64,000 nucleotides of DNA from Pseudomonadota bacterium (GCA_038040175.1 JBBPIT010000006.1:19991-83990); one strand, 5' to 3'. Numbered from the stretch's first letter, positions 1,091 to 34,182 are shown. Made by a program: numbers and translations. The notes: generated by a model from the sequence alone, not told the origin.

Positions 1091-1098
1091 CTGCCCCA

Positions 1099-2127: not shown

Positions 2128-2281
2128 GTGGTGGACGATCTCCGTCACCCCTTTTCCAGACATCGCCTGGAGAGCCGCATTTACGAGGGTCGGATATAAT
2201 TTTTATGACCAACAGTCATCGTATTGGAAAGCTCTTTTCGTTTCTGGCGCATTCTGGTGCAAGCTGGTGTATTCTGATTCC

Positions 2282-2539
2282 ATGTCGATCGCCGAAAAGC
2301 TGGTCCGTCAGAGCGTAAGCCTCCCGGCACGCGTCGCCCGTCAAGTGAAATCCCTGGCGAAGACCAGCAACACGAGCGCCAACCGCATCATTGTTGATCT
2401 CATCGAGTCCGGTCTCGAAGCCCGGGAGCAGGAAAGGAAACGCTTCTTCGAGCTGGCCGAGCGCCTGGCGCATTCCCGCGATGCGGAAGATCAGCAACGT
2501 CTCAAGGCAGAGCTGGCCCGCATGACCTTTGGCGAGTAA
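2282..2539 (+). CDS. ribbon-helix-helix (CopG/Arc-like) putative antitoxin
   Basis: SVSLPARVARQVKSLAKTSNTSANRIIVDLIESGL fits the RHH beta-strand/helix pattern. An alternative GTG start lies at 2267. The stop TAA overlaps the next ATG (TAATG). Confidence 0.7.
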   Translation: MSIAEKLVRQSVSLPARVARQVKSLAKTSNTSANRIIVDLIESGLEAREQERKRFFELAERLAHSRDAEDQQRLKAELARMTFGE

Positions 2540-2781
2540 TGCCCAGGATCCAGTGGACCGGACTGCCTCCCGCGCTCCGCGACCATCTGTTTGACCGGCT
2601 GCGCGAACGCAAGATCACCGCGGAAGACCTTTACCAGCTCAAAACGTGGCGAGAATCCGATCCCGATGCCCCCGACGGGCTCTGGTACAAGGACTTCGGC
2701 TCGTTCAAAATCTGTGGTGAAGGAAAATACCCGAAGACCTTCTTGCTCGCGGGCCAACCTGCCAAAGGTCAGCCGCTCTGA
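2539..2781 (+). CDS. hypothetical 80-aa protein, translationally coupled to the RHH gene (candidate toxin/effector)
   Basis: ORF with start overlapping the upstream stop. The sequence (KTWRESDPDAPDGLWYKDFGSFKICGEGKYPKTF) matches no family I recognise. Confidence 0.55.
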   Translation: MPRIQWTGLPPALRDHLFDRLRERKITAEDLYQLKTWRESDPDAPDGLWYKDFGSFKICGEGKYPKTFLLAGQPAKGQPL

Positions 2782-2845
2782 GGGCTCACTTCGCGTCATC
2801 CGGTAGAAAGCGCAGCGACATATTCGCCGGTTGGCGGTGCGGGGT

Positions 2846-2988
2846 CGGAGCCTGAGTTCGCCCAATCTTTTCAGGCGCTAATTTTGTGAATTGAATCGCC
2901 GGAAAGCCGCATGGGGATTGGCTTTGCGGGCGATTATGCTGTGCAACTATAATCAGTTCCCGATTGTCCTTCGAGCCCCTTTGATTTT
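2846..2988 (+). repeat. copy 2 of ~145-bp direct repeat flanking the RHH cassette
   Basis: Aligns with 1980-2127. It keeps the hairpin (2907-2929) and a weaker TTTTCA-17-TTGAAT motif (2868-2896) pointing into the 3' end of the convergent 3012-4277 gene. Confidence 0.8.
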
Positions 2989-3011
2989 TCTCTTATGGGT
3001 TAGCCGGCTCT

Positions 3012-4277
3012 CTATTTTGTCACCAGACCCTCGATCCACCTGTCGAGCTCGTGCGGAGACGACTTCCAAAGGCTGCGACGCCGTAGCAGCCTAAGCAGGA
3101 CTGTCTTCGTCAGCCACCGGAGCCGTCCCAAGTCTTCGTCAGTCACTTCATACGAACCACTGTGCACGATCTTCGACCGAACGCTGTAAAGGTCCGCAAC
3201 CGACTTCGTTACCTCTGCGCGCCGCTCGCGGCTTCGGCCCAGTAGTCGGGCGACCCGCAAACTCAGTCGATATGTAATTTCCTGGTTGCGCACAGGGAGT
3301 GCGGCGGCCTCAAGAGCGATAGCGAACAACAAGAAGCTTTGCTCGCGCTTTGGCTCCACGCTTGCCCGGCCAGCCCATCGGAACGAGGTGAGCAGCACCT
3401 CACCGGCGGTCTTCGGTGTGGCTATTCTCGAGAGAGCACTCAAGGCCAGCAGCTGTCGAAGAACACGCGGGTCCTTTCGAAGGTTTTCAAGAGAGAACGG
3501 CGCGATGGGTCCAACCTTTGCGTGAGACAACAACACTTGTCCCTCAGATGACACGATGGCCGCTATTTCACGCGCTCTGGCACCCTCAGCGGGCAGGTAT
3601 AGCCACCCGTGGTTGTAGGGAATCAAGTCTTCAAAGAAATTGACGCTATCAACGGCGGCCCTCGTGGCGACCCGCGCCCGGACCATTGCCGAGTCGAAGT
3701 CACGGGCCTTGACCTCAACGACGGCGCACGGATTACCCCAGAGCTCGCTTTCCTTCATGTCGCTCACATCGCTCCGGAATGCGTTGAACTCGGCGCCCGT
3801 TCCAATGGGCTTCAGGAGCTGCCGTAGGTGTGACTGTCCGAATCTCACAAAGCGTATACCGCCGAAACTGAAAGGGAGATACTTTGGAGCGAACCCGTGG
3901 ACAGGCACAAAACACCGGTACGACAGCGGTGGTGAGCACAGCCGCTTGTGCAGATCGACGAGAGCCTGATTCACTCGCTCGTCAAAGGGCTTCTCCCTCT
4001 TGCGCCGAATGTCTAACGAATGAAATAGCGAGTCCTGAAGGTATTGTTCGACGGATCGCCTCGACAGGTCTCCTGTCGTCGAGAAATCATCGACAAGCCG
4101 CCCAACAGTGGCCGTATAGGCAACGAGATCGGCTTCATCGAGGAAGAGCGAACCCTCGTCGTGTCGCGAAATCCTGAAACCGCTGTGGCCATCTGGGATT
4201 CCCGCTGAGAGGTTCTTGTGAATGCTTCTGATGAAGTCACCAACGTACGCTAGCGTCTTTAGTGATTTCGCTTTCAT
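3012..4277 (-). CDS. HEPN-domain protein (ApeA-like C-terminal Rx4H motif) with unassigned N-terminal ~290 aa
   Basis: 421 aa. The C-terminus has FLLFAIALEAAALP ... ADLYSVRSKIVHSG, giving R367-x4-H372 at nt 3162-3179. It lies 46 nt downstream of the methyltransferase gene on the same strand. Confidence 0.6.
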   Translation of the reverse strand: MKAKSLKTLAYVGDFIRSIHKNLSAGIPDGHSGFRISRHDEGSLFLDEADLVAYTATVGRLVDDFSTTGDLSRRSVEQYLQDSLFHSLDIRRKREKPFDERVNQALVDLHKRLCSPPLSYRCFVPVHGFAPKYLPFSFGGIRFVRFGQSHLRQLLKPIGTGAEFNAFRSDVSDMKESELWGNPCAVVEVKARDFDSAMVRARVATRAAVDSVNFFEDLIPYNHGWLYLPAEGARAREIAAIVSSEGQVLLSHAKVGPIAPFSLENLRKDPRVLRQLLALSALSRIATPKTAGEVLLTSFRWAGRASVEPKREQSFLLFAIALEAAALPVRNQEITYRLSLRVARLLGRSRERRAEVTKSVADLYSVRSKIVHSGSYEVTDEDLGRLRWLTKTVLLRLLRRRSLWKSSPHELDRWIEGLVTK

Positions 4278-11492: not shown

Positions 11493-14400
11493 TCAGGCAG
11501 CATGTTCGACGCCGGCTGCCAGGGCACGAAAGCGGGCCAGCAAGGCATCGCGTTCCGCCGCGATCGCCTCGACGTTGCGCTGCTTCACATGGCCGAAACC
11601 GCGGATGCGTTCCGGCAGGCTGGCCAGCGCGACGGCGACCTCATGATTCTCCTTCGACAACGCTCCCGCGATCTCATCCATCAGGGCTTCGTAATCGCGG
11701 ATCAGCCCGCGCTCCATCCTTCTCTCGGCGGTACGTCCGAACGGATCCAGAAAGGTGCCGCGCAGGCGCTTGAAGCGGGCCAGCCAGCGAAACGCATGTC
11801 CCATCCAGGCGCCGTACTGCGCCTTGACGAGCCGGCCCTGCGCGTCGCGCTTCGCCAGCAGCGGCGGGGCGAGGTTGTACTTCACCGTGAACTCGCCTTC
11901 GAACGCGTCGTTCAGCCGTTTCTCGAAATCGCCGTTCGCGTAAAGCCTGCCGACCTCGTACTCGTCCTTGTAGGCCATCAGCTTGGACAGGGTTCTCGCG
12001 ACCGCCCTGGTCAGCGCATCGCCCTTGCCGATCTGCGCTTCGGCACGACGGACCTTGTCGACCAAAGTCTCGTAGCGCTTCGCATAAGCCGCGTCCTGGT
12101 ACTCGGTCAGGAAGGCGATGCGCCGGCGCAGCAGCGTCTCCAGGTTCTGCGGCATCTGGATCACCACCGGCTGGGCGGGTGTGGCGATCGTCTCGACCTG
12201 CGACAGATCGACCGCGGCGCGGCGCCCCCAGTCGAACGCCTGCTTGTTGGCGTCGACAGCTACACCGTTCAACTCGATCGCGCGCAGGATCGAGGCCTGC
12301 TGCAGGGGAATCAGCCCCTTCTGGAACGCGAACCCCAGCATGAACAGGTTGGTGGCGATCGAGTCGCCCAGCAGGGCGGTGGCGAGCCGGGTGGCGTCGA
12401 TGAAATGCGTGCGGCCGCCGACCGATTCGTCGATCAGCGCGCGGATTTCCTCGGCCGGGAACTGCCAGTCGGGATTCTGGGCGAACGGGCCGGGCGGCTG
12501 CTGGTGCATGTTGATCACCGCCACCGTGCGCCCGGGCCGAGTCTTGGAAATGGCATCGTGCGCGCCCGCGGTCAGCATGTCGCAGCCGAGGATCAGGTCG
12601 GCTTCGCCGGTGGCAATGCGTTGCGCGCGGATGCCGGCCGGCGTGCGGGCGATGCGAACGTGCGAAGTGACGGCACCGTTCTTCTGCGACATCCCGGTCA
12701 TGTCCAGCGCCGAGGTGCCCTTGTACTCCAGGTGCGCGGCCATTCCCAGCAGTGCGCCGATGGTGATGACGCCGGTGCCGCCGATTCCGGTGATCAGGAT
12801 GTTGTAAGGCGTTTCGCCGAGCGTTGCGCAGGCCGGTTCCGGCAGCGGCCGGAGCGGCACAGCGGTTTCACGTCTTGCCGCCCGCGACTTCCTCGGCGTG
12901 CCGCCTTCCACCGTCACGAAACTCGGACAGAAGCCCTTGACGCAGGAATAGTCCTGGTTGCAGGAGGACTGGTCGATCGTGCGTTTGCGCCCGAACTCGG
13001 TTTCCACCGGCAGGATCGAAGTGCAGTTCGACTGCACGCCGCAGTCGCCGCAGCCTTCGCAGACGGCTTCGTTGATGAATACCCGCTGCGTGGCCTTCGG
13101 GTACTCGCCTTTTTTGCGGCGGCGGCGTTTTTCCGCCGCACAGGTCTGGTCGTAGATCAACACCGAAACGCCGCGAACTTCCCTGAGTTCCTTTTGCACC
13201 GCTTCCAGGTCCTTGCGGTCATGCAGCGTGACGAGCGCGGGTAATTGCGAACGATCTTCGTAGCGCGTGAGGTCTTCCGTTACGACCGCGATGCGCCCGA
13301 CGCCTTCGGCCGCCATCTGCTGCGCGATCATCGGCACCGAAATTTTTCCGTCGACCGGCTGGCCGCCGGTCATCGCCACGGCATCGTTGTACAGGATTTT
13401 GTAGGTGATATTGACGTTCGCGGCGAGCGCGGCCCGAATCGCAAGGGAGCCGGAATGGAAATAGGTGCCATCGCCGAGATTGGCAAAGATGTGCGTGCGC
13501 TTCGAGAACGGCGCCGCGCCGATCCACGGCGCGCCCTCGCCACCCATGTGTGTCGGGCTCTTGTTGTGCTCCGGATAAATTACCGTCGCCATCACGTGGC
13601 AGCCGATGCCGGCCAGCGCCAGACTGCCGTCGGGCACTTTGGTCGAGGTATTGTGCGGGCATCCCGAGCAGTAGTACGGCGGGCGCACGGGCGTGTTCAC
13701 CGCCTTCTTCAGCACCGCCTCTTTCGCCTCCAGGAAGGCAAGCCGCGCCTTGATCAGATCGCTCTGGTGAAAACGCCCGATGCGCCCGGCGATGACGCGG
13801 GCGATCTGCGCGATGGAGAAATCAGCCTTGGCGGGGAGCAGCCATTCGCCGCGCGGGTGCACCCATTCGCCCTGATCGTCGAACTTGCCGATGACCCGTG
13901 GGCGCACGTCGGGATGCCAGTTGTAGAGCTGCTCCTTGAGCTGGTACTCGACCACCTGGCGCTTTTCTTCGACGACCAGGATTTCTTCCAACCCCTTCGA
14001 GAATTCGCGCACCCCGTCCGCCTCCAGCGGCCAGGGCATCGAGACCTTGAACAGCCGGACGCCGATTTCAGCGGCGTTGCGCTCGGTTATGCCCAGTTCC
14101 TCCAGCGCTTCCAGCACGTCCATATACGACTTGCCTGAAGCGATGATGCCGAGCCGCGCGTTGGGCGAATCGATGGTGGTGCGGTTGAGATGATTCAACC
14201 GCGCGTAAGCCATGGCCGCGTAGATCTTGTAGTCCTGCATCAGCGCTTCCTGATTGCGTGCCTGCAGGCCGAGCAGATCGCCGGACAGCCGGCCGTTCAG
14301 TCCGCCTTCCGGCATCACGAAATCTTCCGGCAGCCGGGTCTGGATTCGAAACGGGTCGGCCTCGATCGAAGCAGACGACTCGACTGTATCGGCCAGCGCC

Positions 14401-15827: not shown

Positions 15828-16664
15828 GTGAACACAGGATATTCACAGTTGACCGACGCGGTCGGCCGCTCCCATGCACCCGCCGGACCGGACGCCCGGA
15901 TTGTCTGCCTCGTTCCGAGCATTACCGAGTTGCTGTTCGAACTCGGGCTCGGCGACCGGATCGTCGGCCGCACCGGATTCTGCGTCCATCCGAAGCCCGA
16001 GGTGAAAAAGGTCGCCAAGGTCGGCGGCACCAAGGACTTCAACCTGGAAAAAATCCGGGCGCTGGCGCCAACTCACCTGATCGTCAACGTGGACGAAAAC
16101 CCATACGAACGGGTCGAAGCGGCGGCAGCGTTCGTGGCGAACGTGATCGTGACCCACCCGATGGGGCCACTCGACAACCCTCCTTTATATCGACTGCTCG
16201 GTGGAATCTTCCGCGCCGAGGCTGAGGCGGAACGTCTCGCGCGAGAATTCCAAGCGGCATATCGCGAAGCGGTCGAAGCAACATCCAATCAGCCGCGCGA
16301 GCGGGTGCTGTACCTGATCTGGAAAGACCCGTGGATGACGATTTCGCGCGACACCTATATCGCGCGGACGCTGGAGTCGGTGGGATGGGACCAGATCGAT
16401 GTGGGAAACCCTGATCGCTATCCGACCCTCTATCTCGAATCGGTGCTTGGACGCGTGGATCGTGCCCTGCTCTCTTCCGAGCCTTACGCGTTCAGACTGC
16501 GAGACGTGGAGCCGGTGAGAGAGGCGATGAATGTTACTTCACCCGTCCCCGGGCACACGGTTCGGACGGTTACCGTTTCACTGATCGACGCGGAAATGAC
16601 GTCCTGGTACGGCAGCCGGGCGATAGAGGGGATGCGCTATCTCGCTTCGCTGCGCACCGTTTGA
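15828..16664 (+). CDS. BtuF/TroA-like helical-backbone metal (cobalamin?) binding protein, no signal peptide
   Basis: 278 aa. RIVCLVPSITELLFELGLGDRIVGRTGFC is typical of class III periplasmic-binding-protein folds. The N-terminus lacks a hydrophobic leader. The start is GTG. Confidence 0.72.
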   Translation: MNTGYSQLTDAVGRSHAPAGPDARIVCLVPSITELLFELGLGDRIVGRTGFCVHPKPEVKKVAKVGGTKDFNLEKIRALAPTHLIVNVDENPYERVEAAAAFVANVIVTHPMGPLDNPPLYRLLGGIFRAEAEAERLAREFQAAYREAVEATSNQPRERVLYLIWKDPWMTISRDTYIARTLESVGWDQIDVGNPDRYPTLYLESVLGRVDRALLSSEPYAFRLRDVEPVREAMNVTSPVPGHTVRTVTVSLIDAEMTSWYGSRAIEGMRYLASLRTV

Positions 16665-16816
16665 TATCGTTTCTCGCGGGTGAGCTGTGTGTAGGTTTTC
16701 TTCGTTTCTCCTTCGAACTGCCGGTTAAAGGAGCACCGATCCAATCGCACCTTGCCCACCTCTCTCAGTTGTACTTGGAACTTCACTTTACGGTTCTCCT
16801 GACCCCTCGGTTCTCC
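16662..16816. repeat. left copy of ~155-165-bp inverted repeat bracketing an 8.8-kb block
   Basis: Its reverse complement aligns with 25613-25777. The outer ~105 nt show 8 mismatches by manual alignment, and the inner part is more diverged with a ~12-nt indel. It starts at the stop codon of the 15828-16664 gene. Confidence 0.85.
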
Positions 16817-16853
16817 AGGCGGGAAGGCTCTGCGTAGGCTTGGTCTCTTCCTC

Positions 16854-17582
16854 CTACGAGGTCTCGGCGGCTTCCTCGAGCTTCGTGACTCCCAGGTAAC
16901 GCTGCTGGGCGCCCGGGTCGGCGAGGAGCGCCTCAGCGGTGGTCTCCGTCTCGATCCGCCCGGCCACCATCACGAGCTGGCGCCGGCAGAGCGCGGTCGC
17001 GACGCGAAGGTTCTGCTCGATGAGCAGGACGCCCACGCCATGGGCGACGAGCCACCTGCAGGTATCGACGAGGTTCTCGACGACCGCCGGGGCGAGCCCC
17101 TCGGAGGGCTCGTCCATGATTAGGAGCTTGGGGTTGCGCAGCAAGGCGCGGCCGATGGCGAGCATCTGTTGCTCGCCACCGGAAAGCTGCAGGGCGCCGA
17201 TCGACTTGCGCTCGGCGAGCCGCGGGAAGAGATCGTAGACGGCATCCCGATTCCAGCGGCCGCCGTCGGAATCGAGCATGCGCAGGTGCTCGTTGACAGT
17301 CAGCGACTGGAAGAGACGGCGGCCCTGGGGCACGTAGCCGATGCCGCGGTTGGCGATCTTGTACGAGGGCTTACCGACGAGCTCGTTCCCCTCGAAGCGG
17401 ATCGAGCCGTTGATGTGCGGGACCATGCCCATGATCGCGTTGCAGAGCGTGGACTTACCCATGCCGTTACGGCCGATCACGGCCACGGGCTCGGCGCCCA
17501 TCTCCAAGCCGACGCCCTGGAGGATGTGGGCTCGGCCGTAGTACGCGTTCAAGCCCTCGAGCGCGAGCAGCGGCTCACTCAT
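16854..17582 (-). CDS. livF: branched-chain amino acid-type ABC transporter ATP-binding protein (LivF-like)
   Basis: Walker A GRNGMGKST and signature LSGGEQQML. It overlaps the upstream ATPase gene by 8 nt. Confidence 0.88.
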   Translation of the reverse strand: MSEPLLALEGLNAYYGRAHILQGVGLEMGAEPVAVIGRNGMGKSTLCNAIMGMVPHINGSIRFEGNELVGKPSYKIANRGIGYVPQGRRLFQSLTVNEHLRMLDSDGGRWNRDAVYDLFPRLAERKSIGALQLSGGEQQMLAIGRALLRNPKLLIMDEPSEGLAPAVVENLVDTCRWLVAHGVGVLLIEQNLRVATALCRRQLVMVAGRIETETTAEALLADPGAQQRYLGVTKLEEAAETS

Positions 17583-18357
17583 TGACGTAGCCGCTCCCTA
17601 GGTAGAGGTCGTGCACCATCTGGTTCGCGCGGATCTCGGCCGGCGTGCCCTCCACGATCACGCGGCTGTCGTGCATCATCGTCACCCGCTCGGCGACAGT
17701 GAGCGCGATGTCCATGTCGTGCTCGATCAGGATCAGCGTGATCGCCCGGTCGAGGCCGAGCAGCAGCTCCGTCAGCGCCGCGCGCTCGCCGCGCGACAGG
17801 CCCGAGGCGGGCTCGTCGAGCATCATCAGCTTCGGGTCGCCAGCGAGCGCCATCCCCACGTCGAGCTGGCGCTGCTCGCCGTGGGAGAGCGAGCCGACGA
17901 GCGCTCGCTCGCGCCCGCCGAGTCCGACACGCTGGGCAAGCGCGCTGGCACGCGCGAGCATCTCTTTGTCCCGTTGGGAGCGGAAGATGCGGCAGTGCCC
18001 GTCGCGCACGCCGAGGACCGAGAGGAAGAGGTTTTCCTCTACCGAGAGGCCGAGGAACAGCCTGGACTTCTGAAAGGTGCGGGTGAGGCCGAGTTTCGCG
18101 CGACTGCGTCCGGGCATCAGTGTGACGTCGTGCCCGAACAGCTTGACGGTGCCCGCCGACGGCGGGAACTCGCCGGAGATGATGTTGAAGAGCGTGGTCT
18201 TGCCGGCGCCGTTCGGCCCGAGGATCGCGCGGCGTTCGCCGTATGCGACCTCGAGGTCGATGTCGCGTAGGGCCTGTACGCCGCCGAAGCGCCGACCGAC
18301 CCCTCGCAAGCGGAGGATCGGGCCGGCACTGTCCGCCTGCGCTGCTGCTTCGGTCAC
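17575..18357 (-). CDS. livG: branched-chain amino acid-type ABC transporter ATP-binding protein (LivG-like)
   Basis: Walker A GPNGAGKTT and signature LSHGEQRQL. Confidence 0.88.
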   Translation of the reverse strand: MTEAAAQADSAGPILRLRGVGRRFGGVQALRDIDLEVAYGERRAILGPNGAGKTTLFNIISGEFPPSAGTVKLFGHDVTLMPGRSRAKLGLTRTFQKSRLFLGLSVEENLFLSVLGVRDGHCRIFRSQRDKEMLARASALAQRVGLGGRERALVGSLSHGEQRQLDVGMALAGDPKLMMLDEPASGLSRGERAALTELLLGLDRAITLILIEHDMDIALTVAERVTMMHDSRVIVEGTPAEIRANQMVHDLYLGSGYVNE

Positions 18358-18361
18358 CTGA

Positions 18362-19777
18362 CTACTTAATTACGCCATTGACGACGTTCTTAGAGTGCCC
18401 GACCCACGGCAGCGACCGCTTGGTACACGGCGGGAACGTGCGGCCGGGAGCCGGAGTCGAGGAGCTGAAGGTGCCGCCGAACGTCTGGTCGACCGCCGGG
18501 ATGTAGCGGATGGTCTTGATCGCGAGTTGGCCGCCCTTGGTGTAGAGCTGCGAGACGTACTGGTCCTGGACCCCCTGACGATTCTCGTCGAGCGTCAGCG
18601 TTCCATAGCCAGCATCGAGCTGGACCGTGCCGAGCGCAGCCTGTAGCTCCTTCTGGCCGCGCGAGAGGTCGCCTCCGACCGCCTGAAGGGCGATGATCAG
18701 GGCGTGAGTGTTGTTGAAGTAGTTGTAGACGAACCCGCTCGCGGCCTGCGAACCAGCCGTACCCTCGAAGGGTGGGAACTGCTTGAACCACTTGTCGATG
18801 ATCGCAGCGTACGACTTCGCCGCGGGCGTGGTCAGATCGCCGGCCGTGCCGGCGCCGCCCACATATACGCCGGCAACGCGGTTGCCAAGCTGCTCGAACT
18901 GACCGGGCGTCCCCCAGAAGAGGTTCCCCATGTGGTGCTTCGCGTCGATCGGGCCCTTGGCCTGTTCGAAGGCCTTCAGGGCCGGGATCAGTCCGGCGCC
19001 GCCGACGGCCCAGAAGTAGCCGTCTACCTCGCTCGGGTCGGGTAGCTGCTGGATGTAGGACGAGTAGTCCGTCGTGTTCAGTGGTGGGAAGACCCGCTTG
19101 GTGACCGTCCCGCCCGCGGCGCAGAACTCCGCGATGAATCCGGCCGCCGAGGTCCAGCCGAAGCTGTAGTCGTCCGCGATGACGGCGGCGGTTTTCCACT
19201 TGAGCGTATTCAAGGCGAGATCGCCCGTGCCGGCGTTGAATTGCGCGCCGTCACCGTTGAAGCGGAAGAAGTTGGGCGCCCGCACCTTGAGGGTGGTGTC
19301 CTGCGCGGCCGCGGTGCCGTTGACGAACGTCTTAGTGGGGTGCCGCTTGGCGTAGTTGGCGACCGCGATCGATTCGTCGCCCGACAGCGGGCCGATCAGG
19401 ATGTCGGCGCCGAGCTGCTCCATGAGGCGCCGTGTCTCCTTGATCGCCGTGTCGGCGGTGTCGTCCGAGCAGCCGAAGCCGACGATCTCGATCGGGTGCC
19501 CGGCGATCGAGCCGCCCGTCATTCCCGCCGACGGCTTGTTTAGGTCCTTCGGCTTCGCCCCGGCGTACTCCGCGAACGCGGCGATGGCGCCGCCGATGTC
19601 CTGCTCGTGGAACGCCCCGAACGCACCCTTGCAGTCGGAGAGGATGCCGATCTTGATCGACGTGGCCCCGGTCTGGCCGGCGGCGCTCCCTGCCGTGACC
19701 GTCGCGCCGAACGCGATGACGAGCAGGGGAAGCCCGCCCGTCAGCCAGACCCGGCGGCCCTTTGCGATGTACCTCAT
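18362..19777 (-). CDS. ABC transporter substrate-binding protein (type I PBP, LivK-like but ~470 aa)
   Basis: The start is placed at MRYIAKGRRVWLTGGLPLLVIAFGATVTAGSAAG, a signal peptide preceded by AAGGA. The track ORF extends to 19957. Confidence 0.82.
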   Translation of the reverse strand: MRYIAKGRRVWLTGGLPLLVIAFGATVTAGSAAGQTGATSIKIGILSDCKGAFGAFHEQDIGGAIAAFAEYAGAKPKDLNKPSAGMTGGSIAGHPIEIVGFGCSDDTADTAIKETRRLMEQLGADILIGPLSGDESIAVANYAKRHPTKTFVNGTAAAQDTTLKVRAPNFFRFNGDGAQFNAGTGDLALNTLKWKTAAVIADDYSFGWTSAAGFIAEFCAAGGTVTKRVFPPLNTTDYSSYIQQLPDPSEVDGYFWAVGGAGLIPALKAFEQAKGPIDAKHHMGNLFWGTPGQFEQLGNRVAGVYVGGAGTAGDLTTPAAKSYAAIIDKWFKQFPPFEGTAGSQAASGFVYNYFNNTHALIIALQAVGGDLSRGQKELQAALGTVQLDAGYGTLTLDENRQGVQDQYVSQLYTKGGQLAIKTIRYIPAVDQTFGGTFSSSTPAPGRTFPPCTKRSLPWVGHSKNVVNGVIK

Positions 19778-19859
19778 GATGGTGTCCTTTCTTTGTCGAA
19801 GCGACGAGGTGTTTTCGTCGCAGTCTGGGCGAACCTTGATGGTAGGTACATGCGGCGTC

Positions 19860-20909
19860 TTACATCGGCTCCCCGGCGCCCTCCCTCGCGACCCCGCTGC
19901 CGCGCAGGCGCCGCCGCACGGCCTCGCGGGCCGACTCCCAGCAGCCGAGAATACCATTCTGCGAAGCTAGCACGATCAGCAGGAAGATCGCGCCGATGAC
20001 GGTGTGGAAGCGACTCTCGTCGATGCCGATGTGCTCCAGGAAGGGGACCCGCCTGATGTAGTTCGAGATCAGCACGAAGGCGAACGCGCCGAGCCACGCG
20101 CCCTCGAGCCGATACAGGCCGCCGATGACGGCGATCGCGAGGAGGTCGAGCGTCGCTGCTAGGCCGATGGAGCTCGGGTCGACGTGTCCGTTCCACCAGA
20201 CGTAGATCACGCCGGAGAGGGACGCGATGAACGCCCCGACGCCGAACGCGAGCATCCGGTGGAGAGCGACGTTGTAGCCAAGCGAACTCATCCGCACGGG
20301 GTCGTCGCGCACGCCCTGAAGCACGCGCCCGAACGGCGTCCGCAACACGTATCTGATCAGGACGTAAACGGCGAGCGCGACGATCAGCGCCGTATAGTAG
20401 AGGCGGAACGGGTGCATCTCCGGCAGCCCGATCAGTTCTGGCGGGTAGATCGAGCTGATGCCCCCGAAGCCGGAGAAAGTGACCACCTGGCCGAAGAAGT
20501 AGTTCGCGATCACCGCGTACGTGAGCGTGATCATCAGGAAGTAGATGCCGGTGCTCCGGCTCGCCAGGGCGCCGAAGATGAGGCCCACCAGCGTCGTGAT
20601 CACGATCGCGAGGAGGGCGCCGAGCCACGGGTTCCAGCCGAGATTGAGGCCCTGGCTCTCGCCCGTGGTGACCACGTTCCCGAGCGTGAACCCGGCGATG
20701 CCGTAGAGCGCGACCTGCGCGAGCGAGACCATCCCGCCGTAGGCCGAGAGGAAGATGAGGCTCGCCGCCGCGATCCCGAGCCAGAGTGTCTGGGTGAGGA
20801 TGAAACTGACGAAGAAGGGACTGAAGAGCAGGGGCGCGAGGACAGCCACGACGATCACGCCGATCCCGATCGTCCGCTCGATGCTCGGCAAGGGACGGAA
20901 CCGCCTCAC
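19860..20909 (-). CDS. livM: branched-chain amino acid-type ABC transporter permease (LivM-like)
   Basis: Polytopic membrane protein. A GTG at 20909 overlaps the livH-like stop (GTGA). The track ORF extends further upstream in the same frame. Confidence 0.82.
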   Translation of the reverse strand: MRRFRPLPSIERTIGIGVIVVAVLAPLLFSPFFVSFILTQTLWLGIAAASLIFLSAYGGMVSLAQVALYGIAGFTLGNVVTTGESQGLNLGWNPWLGALLAIVITTLVGLIFGALASRSTGIYFLMITLTYAVIANYFFGQVVTFSGFGGISSIYPPELIGLPEMHPFRLYYTALIVALAVYVLIRYVLRTPFGRVLQGVRDDPVRMSSLGYNVALHRMLAFGVGAFIASLSGVIYVWWNGHVDPSSIGLAATLDLLAIAVIGGLYRLEGAWLGAFAFVLISNYIRRVPFLEHIGIDESRFHTVIGAIFLLIVLASQNGILGCWESAREAVRRRLRGSGVAREGAGEPM

Positions 20910-22030
20910 GCCGCCCTCCCGAACAGGCCGTACGGGCGAAAGGCGAGCACAACCGCAAGCAGGGCGAACGTGAAGATGACTGAGTAGAAGGTGTAGTCCT
21001 GCGGCAGGTATGCGGCGGAGAAGCTGGTGACGAGGCCGTAAAGCAGTGACCCGACGGCTGCACCGCCGAGCGACCCCATGCCGCCGATGATTACGACCAC
21101 CAGCGAGTTCAGGAGCCACTGGCCGTCCACGCCTGGCGCCAATCCGGCGAAGGAGCCACCGATGACACCGCCGATGCCGGCGAGCGCCGAGCCGACGAGG
21201 AAGGCGATCGCGAAGGTGCGCTGGATGTTAATGCCGAGCGCCGAGACCATCGCAGGGTCGTCCACGCCGGCCCGAATCACCATTCCCGTCCTCGTCTTCT
21301 TCAACCAGAGCCAGAGCAGCCCTCCGACGGCGATCGCGAGCCCGAGGATGAAGAGGCGCGTGACCGGGTAGGTGATCCCAAAGAGGCGCAGGTTCACGAA
21401 GGTGTCGAGTGTCCGCGGCCAGGAGATGTCCTGTGCGATGCCGCCGAAGTGGGCGAGCATCTGGTCGGCAAGGATGATCGAAAGTGCGATCGTGATCAAC
21501 GCCTGCCGCAAGTCCTGTCCTTGATTCCAGCGCAGCAAGAACTGCTGTGTGACGAGCCCGCTAGCCGCGATGATCGTGGCGGCGATGAGCATTGGAAGCA
21601 CCCAGTTCGCGAGGCTCACTTGGTCGCTCATCAGACCGAAGGCGGAGTCGCCGCCGACGAATTCCCGCTGCAGCCGCAGCGCGATGTAGCCGCCGAGCAG
21701 GAAGAAGGAGCCGTGCGCCAGGTTGACGACGCGCATCAGGCCGAAGATGAGCGTGAAGCCGCTCGCGACGACGAAATAGAGGCCGGCGGCAGTGACGCCG
21801 TTCAGCAGTGTGATGACGAAGTCCTTCGGGTTGTCGATCGCCGGGCCCAAGGACGTGTTGCTGGCGATGAAGAGCACCCAGACGACCGCGAACAGTATCG
21901 CCGCCGCGGCCGTCCCGAGCGCGAGGTAGTGCGGTAGCTGGGCCCGAATCTGCTGTATATGAGGACGCTGACGCCGCAAGGCTGCCCGAACCGAACCAGG
22001 CCGTTCCGGGCTTTCAATAGGTGTCCGCAT
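20906..22030 (-). CDS. livH: branched-chain amino acid-type ABC transporter permease (LivH-like)
   Basis: Polytopic membrane protein. Its ATG directly abuts the TAG of the upstream 1124-aa gene. Confidence 0.82.
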   Translation of the reverse strand: MRTPIESPERPGSVRAALRRQRPHIQQIRAQLPHYLALGTAAAAILFAVVWVLFIASNTSLGPAIDNPKDFVITLLNGVTAAGLYFVVASGFTLIFGLMRVVNLAHGSFFLLGGYIALRLQREFVGGDSAFGLMSDQVSLANWVLPMLIAATIIAASGLVTQQFLLRWNQGQDLRQALITIALSIILADQMLAHFGGIAQDISWPRTLDTFVNLRLFGITYPVTRLFILGLAIAVGGLLWLWLKKTRTGMVIRAGVDDPAMVSALGINIQRTFAIAFLVGSALAGIGGVIGGSFAGLAPGVDGQWLLNSLVVVIIGGMGSLGGAAVGSLLYGLVTSFSAAYLPQDYTFYSVIFTFALLAVVLAFRPYGLFGRAA

Positions 22031-25000
22031 CTACCTCAGTTCCACGAGCATGGCCTTCGCCTCCTTGAGGTCCTTGGTGTCAAACCCTTCCGTAAACCAA
22101 AGATAGATGGGCTCGAGCAACTCGAGCGCCTCTTTGCGCCGGTTCTGGCTCTTCAGCAGCCTGGCATAGCTGGTGGCAGCGCGCAGTTCCCAGGATTTCG
22201 CCTGTTGCTGGCACGAGACCTCCAGCGAAGCGACGAACTCGGCTTCGGCTCGTGCCTCATCACCGCCAAGCTGGAGTATCCATCCCTTCACCCTTAGCGC
22301 TTCGGCATAGATGCATTTTTCCTCCCAGCCGGGCCGTTCGATCTGCTCCAGCGCTTCCTCGATCAAGGTCAATGCAACATCGCGCCGGCCCGAAAGTGCG
22401 GCGCTCTGCGCGTGCAGAGTCTTGTAGTACGGGATGTCGACCGCGAGTCCAACTTCCGCCCAACGAGGAATGGATTCGCGGAACAGTGCTTCCGATTCCT
22501 GCGGGCGATCCGAGATCAGCAACCATGCGGCCCGGCAGATCGGGCCGACAATTTGCTCGAAGAAATCGATCTTCTGCTCATGCACCAGCCGCTCGAACTC
22601 GTCCAGCTTCGCTGCGCAAAGTCCCGGCTCATGCCGGTAAACGTCCAGATGCTTGGCGGCGAACTGGAGCGTCCACGCCAGATCGAAAAGGTGTCCGCGT
22701 GCCCGGGTATGTCGAATGCCTTCCTCCAACGTTTGCGCTGATCTCTCCGGATAACCCAGCGCCCACTGCGCGAATGCGTGGTAAACGAGCGCCCAGGACT
22801 TGGGATCGACCGTCAACATATCCGCAAGATGGCGGTGACGGACCGGGTCATAGCGCGTAAGGATGGCCTCGGCGTGCCGGCTGATCGACGCAAACTCTCC
22901 AAGGAAATAGGAAGTCGTTTCCACTTGGGTGTGACCCATCAGACGCATGTCATCAAGATCGCTCCTTTCCCCTTCATCGAGAAGTCGCTCGGCCCAGGAC
23001 ATGGACTCACGAATTTGACCTATGCACATGCGATGTATGGACAGGCCGTAAAGAATGGGCAGCATATGATCGGAGCGGTTCAAAGCCCGCTCGAGGCTCC
23101 ATGCCCGTTCCAGGTTGCTTGCCACGTTCGGGTGAGCCCAGCCCTTGTAGGCCAGCCACGCCATGCCGAGCGTCGTACACAGCTCCAACTCGTGTGCGTC
23201 CCGGCCGGGGGACTCCGGCACCTGCTGAAGCAAACTCATGCCGCGATCCAGATGAGCGATCGCGTCGCGAACAGCCACGCGCTGCAGCGCGAGCTGCCCG
23301 GCCTTGCGCCAGTAAGGAATGGCCTGGTCCGCCAAGCCGGCCGCGCTGTAGTGATGCGCCACCCGCTCGGGCTGCGTCGCGGCAACAGCCGGGAACTGCT
23401 TCTCCAGCACCGTCGCAATCTGCACGTGGATCTGGGTACGCCTCGCCTTCAGCAGCGAGTCGTAGGCAGCGTCCTGCACCAGCGCATGCTTGAAGACATA
23501 GACAGCCTCCGGGATGGCACCGCGCCGGAACGCCAGTCCCGATTCAGTCAGGCGCGCCAGGCCATCGTCGAGCTCGGTCCGGGGCAATGACGCGACGGCC
23601 GAGAACAGCTCGTAGCTGAACTCACGTCCGATGGCGGCGCCGATCTGTGCGATCTCCTTCACGGGCATGAAGCGATCCAGGCGCGCCATCAGCGAGTCCC
23701 TGAGCGTGGCAGGGATTGCAATGGTGTCGGCCGCGCTAGCGTAGTCGTAGCGATCCCCGAAGTCCTTCAAATTGCCGGACTCGAGGATGGACTTGGTCAA
23801 CTCTTCGACAAACAGCGGCACGCCGTCGGTCTTGGCGACAATCTGTTCCAGCAGGTCTGCCGGCAGCGCCTTGCCGCCCGCGATCTTGGAGACCATCGCG
23901 CCGCTTTGCGCCCGCGTGAGCTTGGCCAGATTCAGCGCGGTGACATGTCCGTGTTCCGACCACCGCGACTGAAACTCGGGCCGGTGGGTAAGCACGATTA
24001 GCAACGGGACATTTCTGACCCGATCGATCAGCAGGTCGAGCACTTCCAGGGTGGTGGGATCGGCCCAGTGCAAATCCTCGTACAGCATCACGCTGGGTTG
24101 TTTGTGCACGGCCGCTTCGGTGAGATCGACCAAGGTACGCAGCGTCTCATCCTTGTGCTTCTGCGGGGTCATAGGCAGCGCGCCGTAGCGCTCTTCACAG
24201 GGGATGGAAAGCATGGAGGCGATGAAGCGCACATCGCTCAGCGGCCGCCCGTAGTGGGTGACGATCAGCGCTTCGAGCTTGTCGAGCTTGGACTCGGGCT
24301 GCTCGTCACGGCCAAACTTCAGCGCCCGCTCGAAGTTGTCGATGCTGGGCCAGAAGGCGCTGTTGACGTAATAGGGCGAGCACTGGAACCGCAGCGCTTG
24401 CGCGCCCTGGCCCTCCAGGCGTTCCCGCAGCGCGCTCAGGACACGGCTCTTGCCAATGCCGGGCTCCCCCGAAAGCAGGACCACCTGGCCTTCGCCTTCC
24501 TGCGTAAGCTGCCAGCGCTCGAGCAGAAGCCCGATCTCCTGCTCGCGCCCCACCAGCGGGGTGAGGATGCCGCCGGTGGCCGCATCGAAGCGGCTTGCCG
24601 CGCCGCTCACCCCGAGGATTCGATAGGCATGCGTAGGTCGCGCCATGCCCTTCAGCGTCTGTTCACCCAGGTCCTTGTAATCGAAAGCACCGCCCGCCAA
24701 TCTTTGCACGCGCTCGCTCACCACGATGCTGCCCGGGGCTGCGATGGCCTGCAGCCGCGCAGCCAGGTTCATGGTCTCGCCCACCGCGCCCTTCTCTCCG
24801 GCCGCCACCACTACCAGCCCCGTGGCCACGCCGATACGCACCTGCAGATGCCCGGCATCCGGGACATTGAGCCGGGTCAGCGATTCGATGATTTCGAGCC
24901 CTGCACGAATGGCGCGTTCACCCTCACCTTCGTGCGCCAAAGGATAGCCGAAGAAGGCGACGATGCCGTCGCCGAGGCGCTGGAATACGTAACCCTCGTA

Positions 25001-25405
25001 GCGCGTTACACAGACCGCGCAGGCGTCTTCGTAGCTACGGATGATGCGTTGAAGCACTTCGGGATCGACGCGGGATGCGAGCTCCGTGAAGCCCACCATG
25101 TCGCAGAACAGCACGGTCAACTGGCGCCGCTCGCCCCCGGTGGCAGTGACTGCAGCGGGGCTAGGTGCAAGCTGATTTGCCTCGGCGCCGTTTAATTCGG
25201 CGATCGCCTTGAGGAGTTTCTTGCGATGTCCAAACGATACGCCAAGATCCTGCAGGTCCTTGTCACCAAGTATGCGCAGGACATCGAGGTCCACGTCGTT
25301 GTCGGCGAAGACCCGAGAGTATTGCTCGAGGCTGAGTAATTTGAGCCAACTCGAGACGGACTGCACCTTCCCCTCCCTATGGGCTTTATTTATCTTGGCC
25401 CGCAC
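22031..25405 (-). CDS. SAM-domain / class III adenylate-guanylate cyclase / STAND-type P-loop ATPase / TPR multidomain protein
   Basis: The N-terminal sterile-alpha-motif-like segment reads SWLKLLSLEQYSRVFADNDVDLDVLRILGDKDLQDLGVSFGHRKKLLKAI. The cyclase core reads TVLFCDMVGFTEL...GDGIVAFFG...ETMNLAARLQ, the Walker A reads LLSGEPGIGKSRV, and a long helical-repeat C-terminus follows. Confidence 0.85.
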   Translation of the reverse strand: MRAKINKAHREGKVQSVSSWLKLLSLEQYSRVFADNDVDLDVLRILGDKDLQDLGVSFGHRKKLLKAIAELNGAEANQLAPSPAAVTATGGERRQLTVLFCDMVGFTELASRVDPEVLQRIIRSYEDACAVCVTRYEGYVFQRLGDGIVAFFGYPLAHEGEGERAIRAGLEIIESLTRLNVPDAGHLQVRIGVATGLVVVAAGEKGAVGETMNLAARLQAIAAPGSIVVSERVQRLAGGAFDYKDLGEQTLKGMARPTHAYRILGVSGAASRFDAATGGILTPLVGREQEIGLLLERWQLTQEGEGQVVLLSGEPGIGKSRVLSALRERLEGQGAQALRFQCSPYYVNSAFWPSIDNFERALKFGRDEQPESKLDKLEALIVTHYGRPLSDVRFIASMLSIPCEERYGALPMTPQKHKDETLRTLVDLTEAAVHKQPSVMLYEDLHWADPTTLEVLDLLIDRVRNVPLLIVLTHRPEFQSRWSEHGHVTALNLAKLTRAQSGAMVSKIAGGKALPADLLEQIVAKTDGVPLFVEELTKSILESGNLKDFGDRYDYASAADTIAIPATLRDSLMARLDRFMPVKEIAQIGAAIGREFSYELFSAVASLPRTELDDGLARLTESGLAFRRGAIPEAVYVFKHALVQDAAYDSLLKARRTQIHVQIATVLEKQFPAVAATQPERVAHHYSAAGLADQAIPYWRKAGQLALQRVAVRDAIAHLDRGMSLLQQVPESPGRDAHELELCTTLGMAWLAYKGWAHPNVASNLERAWSLERALNRSDHMLPILYGLSIHRMCIGQIRESMSWAERLLDEGERSDLDDMRLMGHTQVETTSYFLGEFASISRHAEAILTRYDPVRHRHLADMLTVDPKSWALVYHAFAQWALGYPERSAQTLEEGIRHTRARGHLFDLAWTLQFAAKHLDVYRHEPGLCAAKLDEFERLVHEQKIDFFEQIVGPICRAAWLLISDRPQESEALFRESIPRWAEVGLAVDIPYYKTLHAQSAALSGRRDVALTLIEEALEQIERPGWEEKCIYAEALRVKGWILQLGGDEARAEAEFVASLEVSCQQQAKSWELRAATSYARLLKSQNRRKEALELLEPIYLWFTEGFDTKDLKEAKAMLVELR

Positions 25406-25612
25406 ACTGCCTATCGTCTCCCGCTCCCGTCAAATGACACGGGCACCCGCGGCGGCAATAAGCTTACGTCATTTGCTGAGTAAGAGGACGACGCATTCCT
25501 GGGGGAAACGCGGATGGAAACCGGAAAAGGACCAATGAGACACTCAACCTTCTCGTCTCACCAGATCAGTGCGTTGACGAAGTTCCGTCCAGATCGGGAC
25601 TGATCGAATTCC

Positions 25613-25777
25613 TCAGAACCCAGAGTCAGGTCTTGAAATATCAGAACTTAAAATGAAGTCCCAAGTGCAACCGAGAGAGGTGGGCAAGCTGAGATAGGAT
25701 CGGTGCTCCTTTAACCGGCAAATCGAAGGAGAAACGACGAAAACCTACACACAGCCCACCTGCGAGAAACGATATCA
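25613..25777. repeat. right copy of inverted repeat bracketing the 8.8-kb block
   Basis: It is the reverse complement of 16662-16816 and ends 85 nt upstream of the corA start. It contains CGAAGGAGAAACGACGAAAAC and an internal 8-bp complement, AGGTGGGC (25678-25685) with GCCCACCT. Confidence 0.85.
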
Positions 25778-25861
25778 GATGTTCGTGTTGCTCACTGTCG
25801 GAGCCCGCTATTGCCTCATGCTTTCCTTATGCGGTGCTACGATGCGCGCGAGGAGATCGTC

Positions 25862-26827
25862 ATGCTCGTCAAATGCGTCGCTTACCAGGAAGGGCGGAAG
25901 CTCGCCGACATTCAACCGCGGGAGATCCACGAGTATGTCCGCCGGCCGGAGTGCTTTATCTGGGTGGCGCTCCATGAGCCGACCGCGGAAGAACTCGAAA
26001 CGATGCAGCGAGAGTTCGGACTGCACAAACTTGCGGTCGAGGACGCGCGGCACGGCCATCAGCGGCCCAAGATCGAGGAATACGGCGATTCGCTATTCGT
26101 CGTGCTCCACACCGTGGAGCTTGCGGGCGACGAGCTGAAAGTCGGCGAAGTCGACATATTCGCCGGCCCCAACTACGTGCTCTCGGTTCGCAGCCACACC
26201 GAACGGGGATTTGCCGACGTGCGCGCGCGCAGCGAACGCGAGCCGGATCTGCTGCGCCACGGCTCGGCGTATGGGCTCTACGCGATCATGGACGCCGTGG
26301 TGGACCGCTACTTCCCCGTGCTCGACGCGCTGGAGGTCGAACTCGAGGAAGTCGAGAAGCGTATTTTCTCCGGGCAGAACAACCGCGCGATCATCGAATC
26401 CCTATACCTCCTGAAGCAGAAACTGATGACGCTCAAGCACGCCGCCGGTCCGCTTCTGGAGGCAAGCAGCAAACTTTACGGCGGCCGGGTGCCGCACCTT
26501 TGCGCGGGGCTCCAGGAGTATTTCCGCGATGTTTACGACCACCTGGCCCGGGTGAACCAGTCGATAGACATTCTGCGGGAAATGGTCACCACCGCGATAT
26601 CGGTGAACCTGTCGCTTCTGACCATCCAGGAAAACGAGGTCACCAAGCGTTTGGTCGCGTATGCCGCGCTGGTCGCGGTGCCGACCATGATCGCGGGCAT
26701 TTACGGGATGAACTTCGAGAACATGCCGGAACTGACCTGGAGCCTGGGCTACCCGATGACGGTGGCGGTTATGGTGGCGATCGACGGTTATCTCTTCTAC
26801 CGGTTCAGAAAGGCTAAATGGCTGTAA
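25862..26827 (+). CDS. corA: magnesium/cobalt transporter CorA
   Basis: It has the YGMNFENMPE (GMN) motif and two C-terminal TM helices. The ATG at 25862 is preceded by GAGGAG. The track start at 25811 is TTG. Confidence 0.9.
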   Translation: MLVKCVAYQEGRKLADIQPREIHEYVRRPECFIWVALHEPTAEELETMQREFGLHKLAVEDARHGHQRPKIEEYGDSLFVVLHTVELAGDELKVGEVDIFAGPNYVLSVRSHTERGFADVRARSEREPDLLRHGSAYGLYAIMDAVVDRYFPVLDALEVELEEVEKRIFSGQNNRAIIESLYLLKQKLMTLKHAAGPLLEASSKLYGGRVPHLCAGLQEYFRDVYDHLARVNQSIDILREMVTTAISVNLSLLTIQENEVTKRLVAYAALVAVPTMIAGIYGMNFENMPELTWSLGYPMTVAVMVAIDGYLFYRFRKAKWL

Positions 26828-32695: not shown

Positions 32696-33876
32696 AACCC
32701 GAAACCTTTCTCAAGAGCTACCCGACGCTCAACTTCGGCCTCGGCGAAGACATCGACATGCTGCGCGACACCGTGCAGAACTTCGCTTCCAGAGAGATCG
32801 CCCCGCGCGCGGCCGAGATCGACCACAACAACGAATTCCCGATGGACCTGTGGCGCAAGCTCGGCGGCCTCGGACTGCTCGGCGTCACCGTCGAGGAGGA
32901 ATACGGCGGCACCAACATGGGCTATCTCGCGCACGTCGTCGCGATGGAAGAGATCTCCCGCGCCTCGGGCTCGGTCGGGCTGTCCTATGGCGCGCACTCG
33001 AACCTGGCGGTGAACCAGATCCGCCGCAAGGGGAACGAGGCTCAGAAGCGCAAGTACCTGCCGAAGCTGATTTCCGGCGAACACGTCGGCGCGCTGGCGA
33101 TGAGCGAGCCGAATTCCGGCTCCGACGTGGTGAGCATGAAGCTGCGCGCCGAGAAGAAGGGCGACCGCTACATCCTCAATGGCAACAAGATGTGGATCAC
33201 CAACGGGCCGGACGCGAACGTGCTGGTGGTGTACGCCAAGACCGACGTGAATGCCGGACCGAAAGGAATAACCGCCTTCATCGTCGAAAAAGGCTACCAG
33301 GGTTTCTCCACCGCGCAGAAGCTCGACAAGCTTGGAATGCGCGGCTCCAACACCTGCGAACTGGTGTTCCGGGACTGCGAAGTGCCGGTGGAGAACGTGC
33401 TGGGCGAAGTAAACCGCGGCATTCAGGTGCTGATGAGCGGGCTCGACTACGAGCGCGCGGTGCTCGCCGGCGGCCCGCTGGGCATCATGCAAGCTTGCAT
33501 GGACGTGGTGATGCCGTACGTGCACGAACGCGAACAGTTCGGCCAGCCGATCGGCGAGTTCCAGTTGATGCAGGGCAAGATCGCCGACATGTACACCACG
33601 ATGAACGCCTGCAAGGCCTACGTGTATGCGGTGGGCAGGGCCTGTGATCGCGGCGAGGCCATACGCAAGGACGCCGCCGGCGCCATTCTGTACGCCGCGG
33701 AAAAGGCGACCTGGATGGCGGGCGAAGCGATCCAGGCACTGGGCGGCAACGGCTACATCAACGAGTACGCGACCGGCAGGCTGTGGCGCGATGCGAAGCT
33801 GTACGAGATCGGCGCCGGCACATCGGAGATCAGGCGGATGCTGATCGGCCGCGAGCTTTTCAAAGAAACTTCGTAG
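32692..33876 (+). CDS. ivd: isovaleryl-CoA dehydrogenase
   Basis: [20 protein letters not shown] ... an acyl-CoA dehydrogenase fold ending in [19 protein letters not shown]. Confidence 0.92.
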
Positions 33877-33884
33877 CAAACTCT

Positions 33885-34100
33885 TTCAACACGAAGGACA
33901 CGAAGGAAAAACGAAGGCTCACGAAGGAAAGCAAAAACATGCGAACGGGAGAAGAAATAGGATGCACGATTCCTGGGAGCTGTCGCCCGGGCTCGCATCG
34001 AATGCTTTTCTCTTTGAACCCTACGTCCTTTTGGATTCAGGGGATTCCGGTTTGAAGTCCTTCGTGTTCCATTGCTCTTCCTTCGTGTCCTTCGTGTTTA
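33885..34100. repeat. tandem-repeat-armed hairpin element A (unit CACGAAGGA)
   Basis: AACACGAAGGACACGAAGGA (33888-33907) is the perfect reverse complement of 34079-34098. The arms are 9-nt tandem units, with a ~120-nt unique centre. Confidence 0.85.
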
Positions 34101-34182
34101 CGCGGTTCGCTTGAGACTTCAATGACGACCGTCACAGCACAGTTCCTGCCCAGCGCCAATTTGCAACAAGGAGACTAAAGTC

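Follow-up and report, generated by a model that had tools for sequence, protein, structure and literature searches.

The insertion sequence (IS) IS30 is known to use long, specific target sites and to generate deletions. In Tn6330 (ISApl1-mcr-1-pap2-ISApl1), the flanking IS30-family copies are lost after insertion and the cargo is immobilized (PMC5821093). This loss of ISApl1 proceeds by abortive transposition or illegitimate recombination and leaves remnants, with an almost exact excision of 1064-1074 bp (PMC5821093). A second kind of described unit is bracketed by miniature inverted-repeat transposable elements (MITEs), as in integron mobilization units and Tn3-derived inverted-repeat miniature elements (TIMEs), where short noncoding inverted repeats surround a block without a transposase of its own. 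Here, we report on a 64,000-nucleotide stretch of DNA from a Pseudomonadota bacterium (GCA_038040175.1, JBBPIT010000006.1:19991-83990; hereinafter, the window), in which six genes for a signaling cyclase and a Liv-type ATP-binding cassette (ABC) transporter lie between inverted repeats (the arms), themselves located between a BtuF-like gene and corA. The block is probably the fossil of an IS30-family composite transposon with inverted IS copies, the outer parts of which were later deleted.

So read, the locus shares with Tn6330 a cargo between two IS30-family copies, IS loss after insertion, remnants, and a fixed cargo. It differs in that the left inverted repeats (IRLs) face inward, ~130-160 bp of each left end has been kept, and the deletions extend into host DNA; the cargo of Tn6330 is a resistance gene, whereas here it is a signaling cyclase with a Liv-type ABC transporter. 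In MITE-bracketed units, each flanking element has both terminal repeats, the outer tips point outward, and the unit is movable by a transposase supplied in trans. A MITE pair or mobilizable unit was rejected as a reading of this locus because each arm has the IRL alone, facing the cargo.

A repeat search of the window returned one inverted pair (16662-16790 and 25649-25777; gapless 129-nt arms, 91% complementary, 8858 nt apart) and no other long inverted pair like it. The arms match each other at E = 3e-47 (blastn), and a 23-nt submotif occurs exactly twice in the window (shuffles expect 0). An inverted repeat around the block had been proposed in a first-pass annotation made from the sequence alone, and both searches and a MAFFT alignment bear it out. 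The alignment reproduced the 8 mismatches counted earlier in the outer ~105 nt; farther in, an indel that had been put at ~12 nt was aligned as 11 nt, and beyond it the predicted divergence takes the form of a weaker similarity (CCTGACyCy..GGTTCT..GG) reaching 16816 and 25613. The longest perfect stretch common to both arms is 24 nt. As the annotation had placed it, the left arm begins at the TGA with which the BtuF-like gene (15828-16664) stops. The right repeat does end 85 nt before the corA ATG (25862), but the right IS copy itself runs ~31 nt past 25777, to ~25808; the inverted repeat stops at 16662 and 25777 because the left copy ends there.

All copies of the arm sequence were read in one orientation (the left arm as its reverse complement). 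A 21-nt core of the arms (CCGGTTAAAGGAGCACCGATC) is present in 13 soil-metagenome contigs (L007-L019; L-numbers denote metagenome contigs throughout), where the copies occupy at least nine distinct contexts. None of these contigs holds any of the window's genes, and the repeat is therefore a dispersed element. An exact scan for the same 21-mer gave 0 matches in 185,579 species-representative genomes. The consensus of the copies starts with (GGGG)TCAGG and ~18 nt, followed by TTAAAATGAAGTCCCAAGTGCAAC..., continues with CTCCTT-N14-AAGGAG and AAACG, and enters coding sequence at ATG AAT ACC TAC ACA CAG CTC ACC CGA GAC AAA CGA TAT CAG ATG TTC GTG.... An open reading frame (ORF) follows this leader in 5 of the 13 contigs. 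The ORF of L013 (2165-3139) is complete, encodes 324 aa, scores 276.5 bits against NCBIfam model NF033563 (transpos_IS30; cutoff, 80), and also matches Pfam HTH_38, HTH_23, and rve.

Over exactly 1073 bp, contigs L013, L009, and L018 show 94-99.9% identity, whereas their flanks are unrelated, so this span defines the insertion sequence; the end of contig L009 coincides with the IS right end. The tips read TGTAGATTTACCGGTCAAGTGCAAC (right) and TTAAAATGAAGTCCCAAGTGCAAC (left). Between the IRL and the right inverted repeat (IRR; TGTAGATTTACCGGTCAAGTGCAAC as IRR'), the inner AAGTGCAAC agrees fully, and similarity over the outer 15 nt is weak. In the two copies with both flanks (L013 and L018), no clear 2-3 bp target duplication or palindromic target was read, the exact tip being uncertain by 1-2 nt. 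Among annotated plasmid transposases, the closest to that of L013 belong to the IS30 family (ISAeca1-like; ≤44% identical), and the GTDB species representatives (185,579) gave only distant IS30-family matches (best, 45% aa). With a transposase ≤45% identical to the reference collections searched, the IS is classified here as an undescribed member of the well-known IS30 family, and the arms as the left ends of one such IS. The annotation had offered a duplicated intergenic element as one origin of the repeats, which this assignment replaces.

Like IS30 of Escherichia coli and its family, the element encodes one DDE transposase, which carries a helix-turn-helix (HTH_38) at its N terminus and matches the NCBIfam IS30 equivalog, and is ~1.07 kb long. 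Its right tip (TGTAGATT...GTCAAGTGCAAC) resembles the inverted repeat of E. coli IS30 (TGTAGATTCAATTGGTCAACGCAACA). Unlike in the family, the match of its IRL tip (TTAAAATGAAGTCCC...) to the IRR is confined to the inner 9-10 nt. Contig L013 also has an IS110-family transposase gene (DEDD_Tnp_IS110 and Transposase_20; 952-1968, minus strand), which begins ~100 nt away from where the intact IS30-family copy (2074-3146) has its left tip; the two genes are divergent.

In the window, the left arm begins with a 14-codon transposase stump (KKTYTQLTREKRYQ; 16662..16702, minus strand), delimited by tblastn, alignment to transposase-bearing copies, and junction comparison. Its start codon has changed from ATG to AAG (16702-16700, minus strand), and at its outer end it runs into the truncated BtuF-like gene, providing that gene with its TGA stop (16662-16664). 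The IS 5' untranslated region (5'UTR), with the Shine-Dalgarno (SD) sequence AAGGAG, an anti-SD hairpin (CUCCUU-N14-AAGGAG), and the IRL, occupies 16703..16792 (minus strand; blastn, alignment, and folds); the IRL lies at ~16768-16792 (CGTAAAGTGAAGTTCCAAGTACAAC on the minus strand), with the IS tip toward the block. An IS-flank motif with a shortened hairpin spacer (GGGGTCAGG, minus strand; 16793..16816) follows, outside the IS proper and outside the relatives' cargo. On the right, the flank motif (25613..25647) comprises TCAGG (25626-25630) and a small hairpin (TCTTGAAATATCAGAA) and was delimited by flank alignment and by cargo homology in L021, which starts at 25612. It is followed by the IRL (25648-25671, TTAAAATGAAGTCCCAAGTGCAAC) and the 5'UTR with SD and anti-SD hairpin (together 25648..25736, plus strand; blastn and alignment) and by a 24-codon transposase stump (TKTYTQPTCEKRYQMFVLLTVGAR; 25737..25808, plus strand; tblastn and three-way junction comparison) with a start codon mutated to ACG (25737-25739). 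Here, too, the IS tip points toward the block, and the element reads toward corA.

Queried with the L013 IS (blastn), the left arm corresponds to query positions 48-176 (window 16790-16662, 89%) and the right arm to positions 45-206 (window 25646-25807, 92.6%). The L013 transposase (tblastn) matches with residues 3-25 at 25743-25811 (E = 1.7e-6) and residues 3-14 at 16696-16661, and no further IS30-family coding sequence was found in the 64 kb. The order is thus truncated btuF, left stump and IRL, cargo, right IRL and stump, and corA, with the IS tips abutting the cargo and the stumps facing outward; the outer part of both copies, including the IRR and >90% of the transposase gene, is gone. 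The block had been described as lacking any transposase, and indeed no intact recombinase is enclosed, but the arms themselves carry 14 and 24 codons of one. Measured against the majority of five transposase-bearing copies, three derived substitutions are shared by both arms, seven are private to the left arm, and three are private to the right arm. This pattern suggests sister copies that have since decayed, and the private substitutions indicate that the decay has gone on for some time.

Several smaller motifs noted earlier in the arms belong to the IS leader. The CGAAGGAGAAACGA[AC]G motif is the SD with the mutated ATG. The 8-nt complement AGGTGGGC...GCCCACCT, with its G:U-compatible form on the minus strand, exists, but it is part of the leader in all copies and is no riboswitch. 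By pairing, the CUCCUU-N14-AAGGAG hairpin would mask the SD of the transposase gene, as is common among insertion sequences. Rfam gave no match for the whole window at the gathering score or for each arm at E ≤ 10, and single-sequence folds of both strands of both arms were no more stable than shuffles (z, -1.57 to +0.39). A riboswitch or small RNA was dropped as a reading on these grounds; the first-pass annotation had advised just these Rfam and folding checks of each copy. When both arms were scanned for promoter and terminator consensus sequences, no promoter-like (sigma-70-like) site came up, which leaves a corA-promoter role of the right stump pure speculation. The likeness seen earlier between the repeat and hairpin elements farther right did not hold up: with ≤3 mismatches allowed, a 21-mer matches nowhere else in the window, and a 13-mer matches about as often as chance predicts. 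The apparent resemblance to the element at 33.9 kb (CGAAGGA..ACGAAG) was discarded, being the IS SD plus the mutated ATG.

The insertion is evident from the host site. Relatives were found via CorA homologues, and their contigs were compared for synteny. The BtuF-like Peripla_BP_2 gene (15828..16664, plus strand; Pfam) has a C terminus truncated by the insertion relative to L001, L024, L025, and L026, and corA (25862..26827, plus strand; Pfam CorA, 2.5e-59) starts at the ATG at 25862. In seven contigs from six distinct relatives (L001, L002, L005/L006, L024, L025, and L026), Peripla_BP_2 directly precedes corA, in the order POR-AsnC-Peripla_BP_2-CorA-PhaC with 24-375 nt between BP_2 and CorA. 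The CorA proteins of these empty-site relatives are 81-93% identical (aa, tblastn) to that of the window (L001, 93%; L002, 85%; L005/L006, 82%; L024, 89%; L025 and L026, 88%), and the POR and BtuF proteins of L024 are 95% identical (aa) to the window's. Collinearity with L001 (blastn) breaks at window positions 16662 and 25800, where 76 nt of L001 stand against ~9.1 kb here. Given the adjacency in relatives, 16662-25808 is an insertion. No remnants of cargo or IS were seen in the empty sites of L001, L002, L005, L024, L025, and L026.

This is the neighborhood comparison that the first-pass annotation had advised, and it agrees with the horizontal acquisition put forward there, which those seven contigs without the block set against an ancestral BtuF-like/corA adjacency. 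The annotation had also named the finding that would speak against it, a repeat dispersed genome-wide together with a block syntenic in all relatives; the repeat is indeed dispersed (13 metagenome contigs), yet the block is not syntenic. A seventh relative (L003/L004) has a different, AT-rich 5-kb island at the same place (N6_N4 methyltransferase and Big_2 protein), with no trace of the IS and no integrase. DNA has repeatedly been gained and lost in the BtuF-like/corA spacer. The length of this spacer is 24 nt in L025 (236-259) and ~50-130 nt in L005, L002, L001, and L026, and L024 has an extra GC-rich segment of ~250 nt; the spacer coordinates are 16665-25861 in the window, 8125-8251 in L001, 9674-10033 in L024, and 4920-10000 in L003.

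At the left junction, native CTGCGCACCGCTTCAAGACCTTGA (...RTASRP*) compares with CTGCGCACCGTT joined to TGATATCG in the window (...RTV*), with a microhomology of 0-2 nt; the C terminus of the BtuF-like protein changes from ...LRTASRP* to ...LRTV*, four codons being lost and the TGA taken from the IS stump. On the right, the IS reads TTCGGAGCCCGGCACAAAG, the native spacer of the closest relative reads ATAGAGCCCGGCCTTGCCTCATGC, and the window reads TCGGAGCCCGCTATTGCCTCATGC. From the comparison of IS, window, and empty sites (L001 and L024), the join falls within a 9-10 nt microhomology (GAGCCCGGC) common to IS and native spacer. The immediate flanks of the unit (..CACCGTT and GATGTTC.. / CTATTGCC) are unrelated, as observed earlier, so that no target-site duplication (TSD) surrounds it, and native DNA has been deleted at the site; the lack of a TSD is expected if the outer ends were deleted. 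Both junctions are scars left by illegitimate recombination rather than by transposition or a site-specific recombinase.

The cargo (16817..25612, minus strand) was delimited by its Pfam-annotated genes and by homology, which in L023 ends at 16816 and in L021 starts at 25612, just inside the IS-flank motifs and at the inner limits proposed earlier. All of its genes are on the minus strand, as the first-pass annotation had it: livF (16854-17582), livG (17575-18357), a Peripla_BP_6 binding protein gene (SBP; 18362-~19777), livM (~19860-20909), livH (20906-~21979), and a SAM-adenylate/guanylate cyclase-AAA_16-TPR (STAND) gene (22031-~25366), the upstream region of which also lies in the cargo. 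The cyclase protein combines SAM, class III cyclase, AAA_16, and TPR domains in 1111-1124 aa. Homologues stand in other contexts, in the order cyclase-cyclase-livH-livM-SBP in L021 and L023 (in L023 on through livG and livF) and thioredoxin-cyclase-cyclase in L020. L023 is 91% identical (nt) to window 22249-16816, and L021 is 85% identical to 25612-22086. The cargo is, by these comparisons, a conserved cyclase-livHM-SBP-GF cluster that is found elsewhere in other contexts. GC content is flat across block and flanks, and the ranges of GC at third codon positions overlap (block, 0.77-0.92; flanks, 0.72-0.86), so the compositional check suggested earlier was uninformative; flat composition fits a donor of similar composition.

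Two tandem SAM-cyclase-STAND paralogues lie 5' of livH in relatives (L021, 638-7467; L023, 1760-8607; L020, 2937-8545), and the window has one (22031-25405, minus strand). The body of the window gene is closest to paralogue 1 (77-88% nt), and its last ~200 nt are closest to the end of paralogue 2 (91%), which suggests a deletion by recombination between the paralogues. In L023, the stretch 3' of livF (13820-14040) looks like the C-terminal part of a Leu/Ile/Val-type binding protein (..LLPGIRMTTSRTDYPPIEQMQLMRFDG..); it is probably what remains of a pseudogene and is not in the window.

The sequence outside the IRL is itself conserved. (GGGG)TCAGG with ~18 nt is found there in nearly all IS copies (left flanks in L007-L019; window 16793-16816 and 25613-25647), with a small hairpin whose stem varies by copy (CTTG..CAAG, CTATA..TATAG, TCTT..AAGA, and CCAG.CTGG), and in some copies the flank continues with CCCCTYGGTTSTG. 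We know of no counterpart in the IS30 family of such a conserved hairpin beside the IRL. That (GGGG)TCAGG and the hairpin form the true IS tip was rejected as the favored reading because L009 and L013 agree at 99.9% within the 1073 bp but not in these 18 nt. The pattern may be one of strict insertion next to a site resembling repetitive extragenic palindromes, with only two copies having both flanks, and the constancy of the motif may reflect strict target choice.

The features of a composite transposon are present in that the cargo is bracketed by inverted remnants of the same IS and the site is empty in relatives; intact outer IS ends and a transposase were not found in the window (tblastn). 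The donor would probably have been a soil lineage of related Burkholderiales, in which two inverted IS copies would have inserted on either side of the cyclase-liv cluster, at the (GGGG)TCAGG-hairpin sites that the IS would prefer. The resulting unit (IRR-transposase gene-IRL, cargo, IRL-transposase gene-IRR) would then have moved into the BtuF-like/corA spacer via its two outer IRR ends. Later illegitimate, microhomology-mediated deletions would have cut ~900 bp out of each IS, including the IRR and most of the transposase gene, and, with it, adjacent native DNA (the last four btuF codons and part of the spacer). The present structure is a fixed, non-mobile insertion, with inward-facing IRLs and neither an IRR nor an encoded transposase.

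Several points weigh against this history. No intact progenitor (full IS, cargo, full IS) was found, and the IS is absent from the 185,579 species-representative genomes (21-mer, 0 matches; best transposase, 45% aa). Neither IRR nor TSD survives, so that transposition into the site is an inference. The two separate deletions left similar stumps (129 and ~160 nt of IS), and breakpoints within 31 nt of each other have a chance of ~6% if independent and uniform. In Tn6330, the IS copies are direct and were lost almost precisely, whereas here they are inverted and the loss was imprecise. The (GGGG)TCAGG hairpin outside the IRL could either reflect a preferred target or belong to the element as an additional part.

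If the composite-transposon reading holds, an apparently transposase-less block becomes an ordinary decayed IS30-family composite transposon, with a clean empty site and readable deletion scars, a case that would not surprise a specialist in mobile elements. In annotation, each arm would be labeled an IS30-family pseudogene/IRL remnant, and the BtuF-like gene would be marked as altered at its C terminus. The locus would also record lateral or intragenomic movement of a conserved SAM-cyclase-STAND and Liv-type ABC transporter cluster in uncultured soil bacteria, presumably Burkholderiales to judge by the source names of the CorA homologues.

Alternatively, the block may have come in by a single transposase-independent event, in which a linear fragment ending inside both IS copies (delivered, e.g., by transformation or transduction) was joined by microhomology and replaced ~76 nt of native DNA. 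We consider this unlikely, even though several features suit it: in IS coordinates, no more than 31 nt separates the ends of the two stumps, and snap-back of the inverted IS ends in single-stranded DNA (a panhandle) could explain their near-equal length; the junctions show microhomologies of 9-10 nt (right) and 0-2 nt (left), ~76 nt of native DNA missing, and no TSD or IRR; and the same spacer has taken up other unrelated DNA (the 5-kb island of L003/L004 and the ~250 nt of L024). However, there is no direct evidence for a one-step event, transposition followed by two deletions leaves the same scars, and independent short left-end stumps at other loci (L007/L012/L014 and L008/L017) look like the usual decay of this IS. 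Such stumps make short left ends seem a common decay product for which no special intermediate is needed.

Left-end remnants of the IS seem over-represented. An IS left end of ~100 nt is joined to other sequences in L008 (720-930), L017 (1850-2050), L012 (5158-5611, equal to L007 and L014), L010/L016, and L011 (2272-2852). In L007/L012/L014, it is cut after codon 5, and L008/L017 have a different 45-nt segment after the SD. The copies in L010/L016 are internally deleted, with the 5' end fused to the TFDNGTEF part of the transposase, and L011 has two internally deleted copies head to head.

It is rather improbable that the block arrived otherwise and that two IS copies later inserted independently at its edges, through the (GGGG)TCAGG-hairpin target, and were then truncated. 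The left-flank motif is very consistent in all contexts, and two insertions beside similar motifs are therefore plausible. Against this, the stumps directly abut native btuF and corA-upstream DNA, so that the boundaries of the insert are the stump ends, which makes later insertions less economical: the original borders of the island would need to have been erased as well. The three shared-derived substitutions, moreover, suggest the same IS variant at both edges.

We give equally little credence to a bolder version of the one-step event, in which the near-equal stumps would be the signature of a transposase-independent panhandle, trimmed to its paired stem and spliced by microhomology at an indel-prone spacer, or to its milder variant, in which the corA-proximal stump was kept because it now provides a promoter and 5'UTR for corA, which the insertion had severed from its operon.

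Present-day function of the arms, whether as inversion substrate for the block or, in the right arm, as regulatory RNA or promoter of corA, is very unlikely: the right stump does read toward corA, the insertion did cut corA off from the upstream same-strand BtuF-like gene (24 nt away in L025), and G:U-compatible pairing exists, but there is no Rfam match (E ≤ 10), fold z scores range from about -1.6 to +0.4, no sigma-70-like promoter was found, the pairing features are the IS 5'UTR in all copies, the longest perfect identity is 24 nt, and the left arm has no downstream gene. Pfam found no recombinase domain, as an invertible switch would have, in the six enclosed genes or their immediate neighbors; recombination-driven inversion is possible in principle, the arms being 91% identical, and is a poor bet.

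The window has other repeats as well. A direct repeat of ~136 nt lies at 1975-2110 and 2841-2977 (84-85% identical; spacing, 867 nt). An intergenic inverted repeat at 33875-33935 and 34051-34111 (61-nt arms, 75% complementary), rich in CACGAAGGA units, sits between acyl-CoA dehydrogenase and AceK genes and has no relation to the arms of the block; an alignment with L003 spans it at 81%, and L002 does not align there. In L019, CCTTCG repeats similar to those at 33.9 kb lie on the flanks of the IS copy. The heptamer GGCGAKA (AGGCGATAGGCGTTAGGCGAGAGGCG...) forms short arrays at 53847-53907 and 59664-59710.

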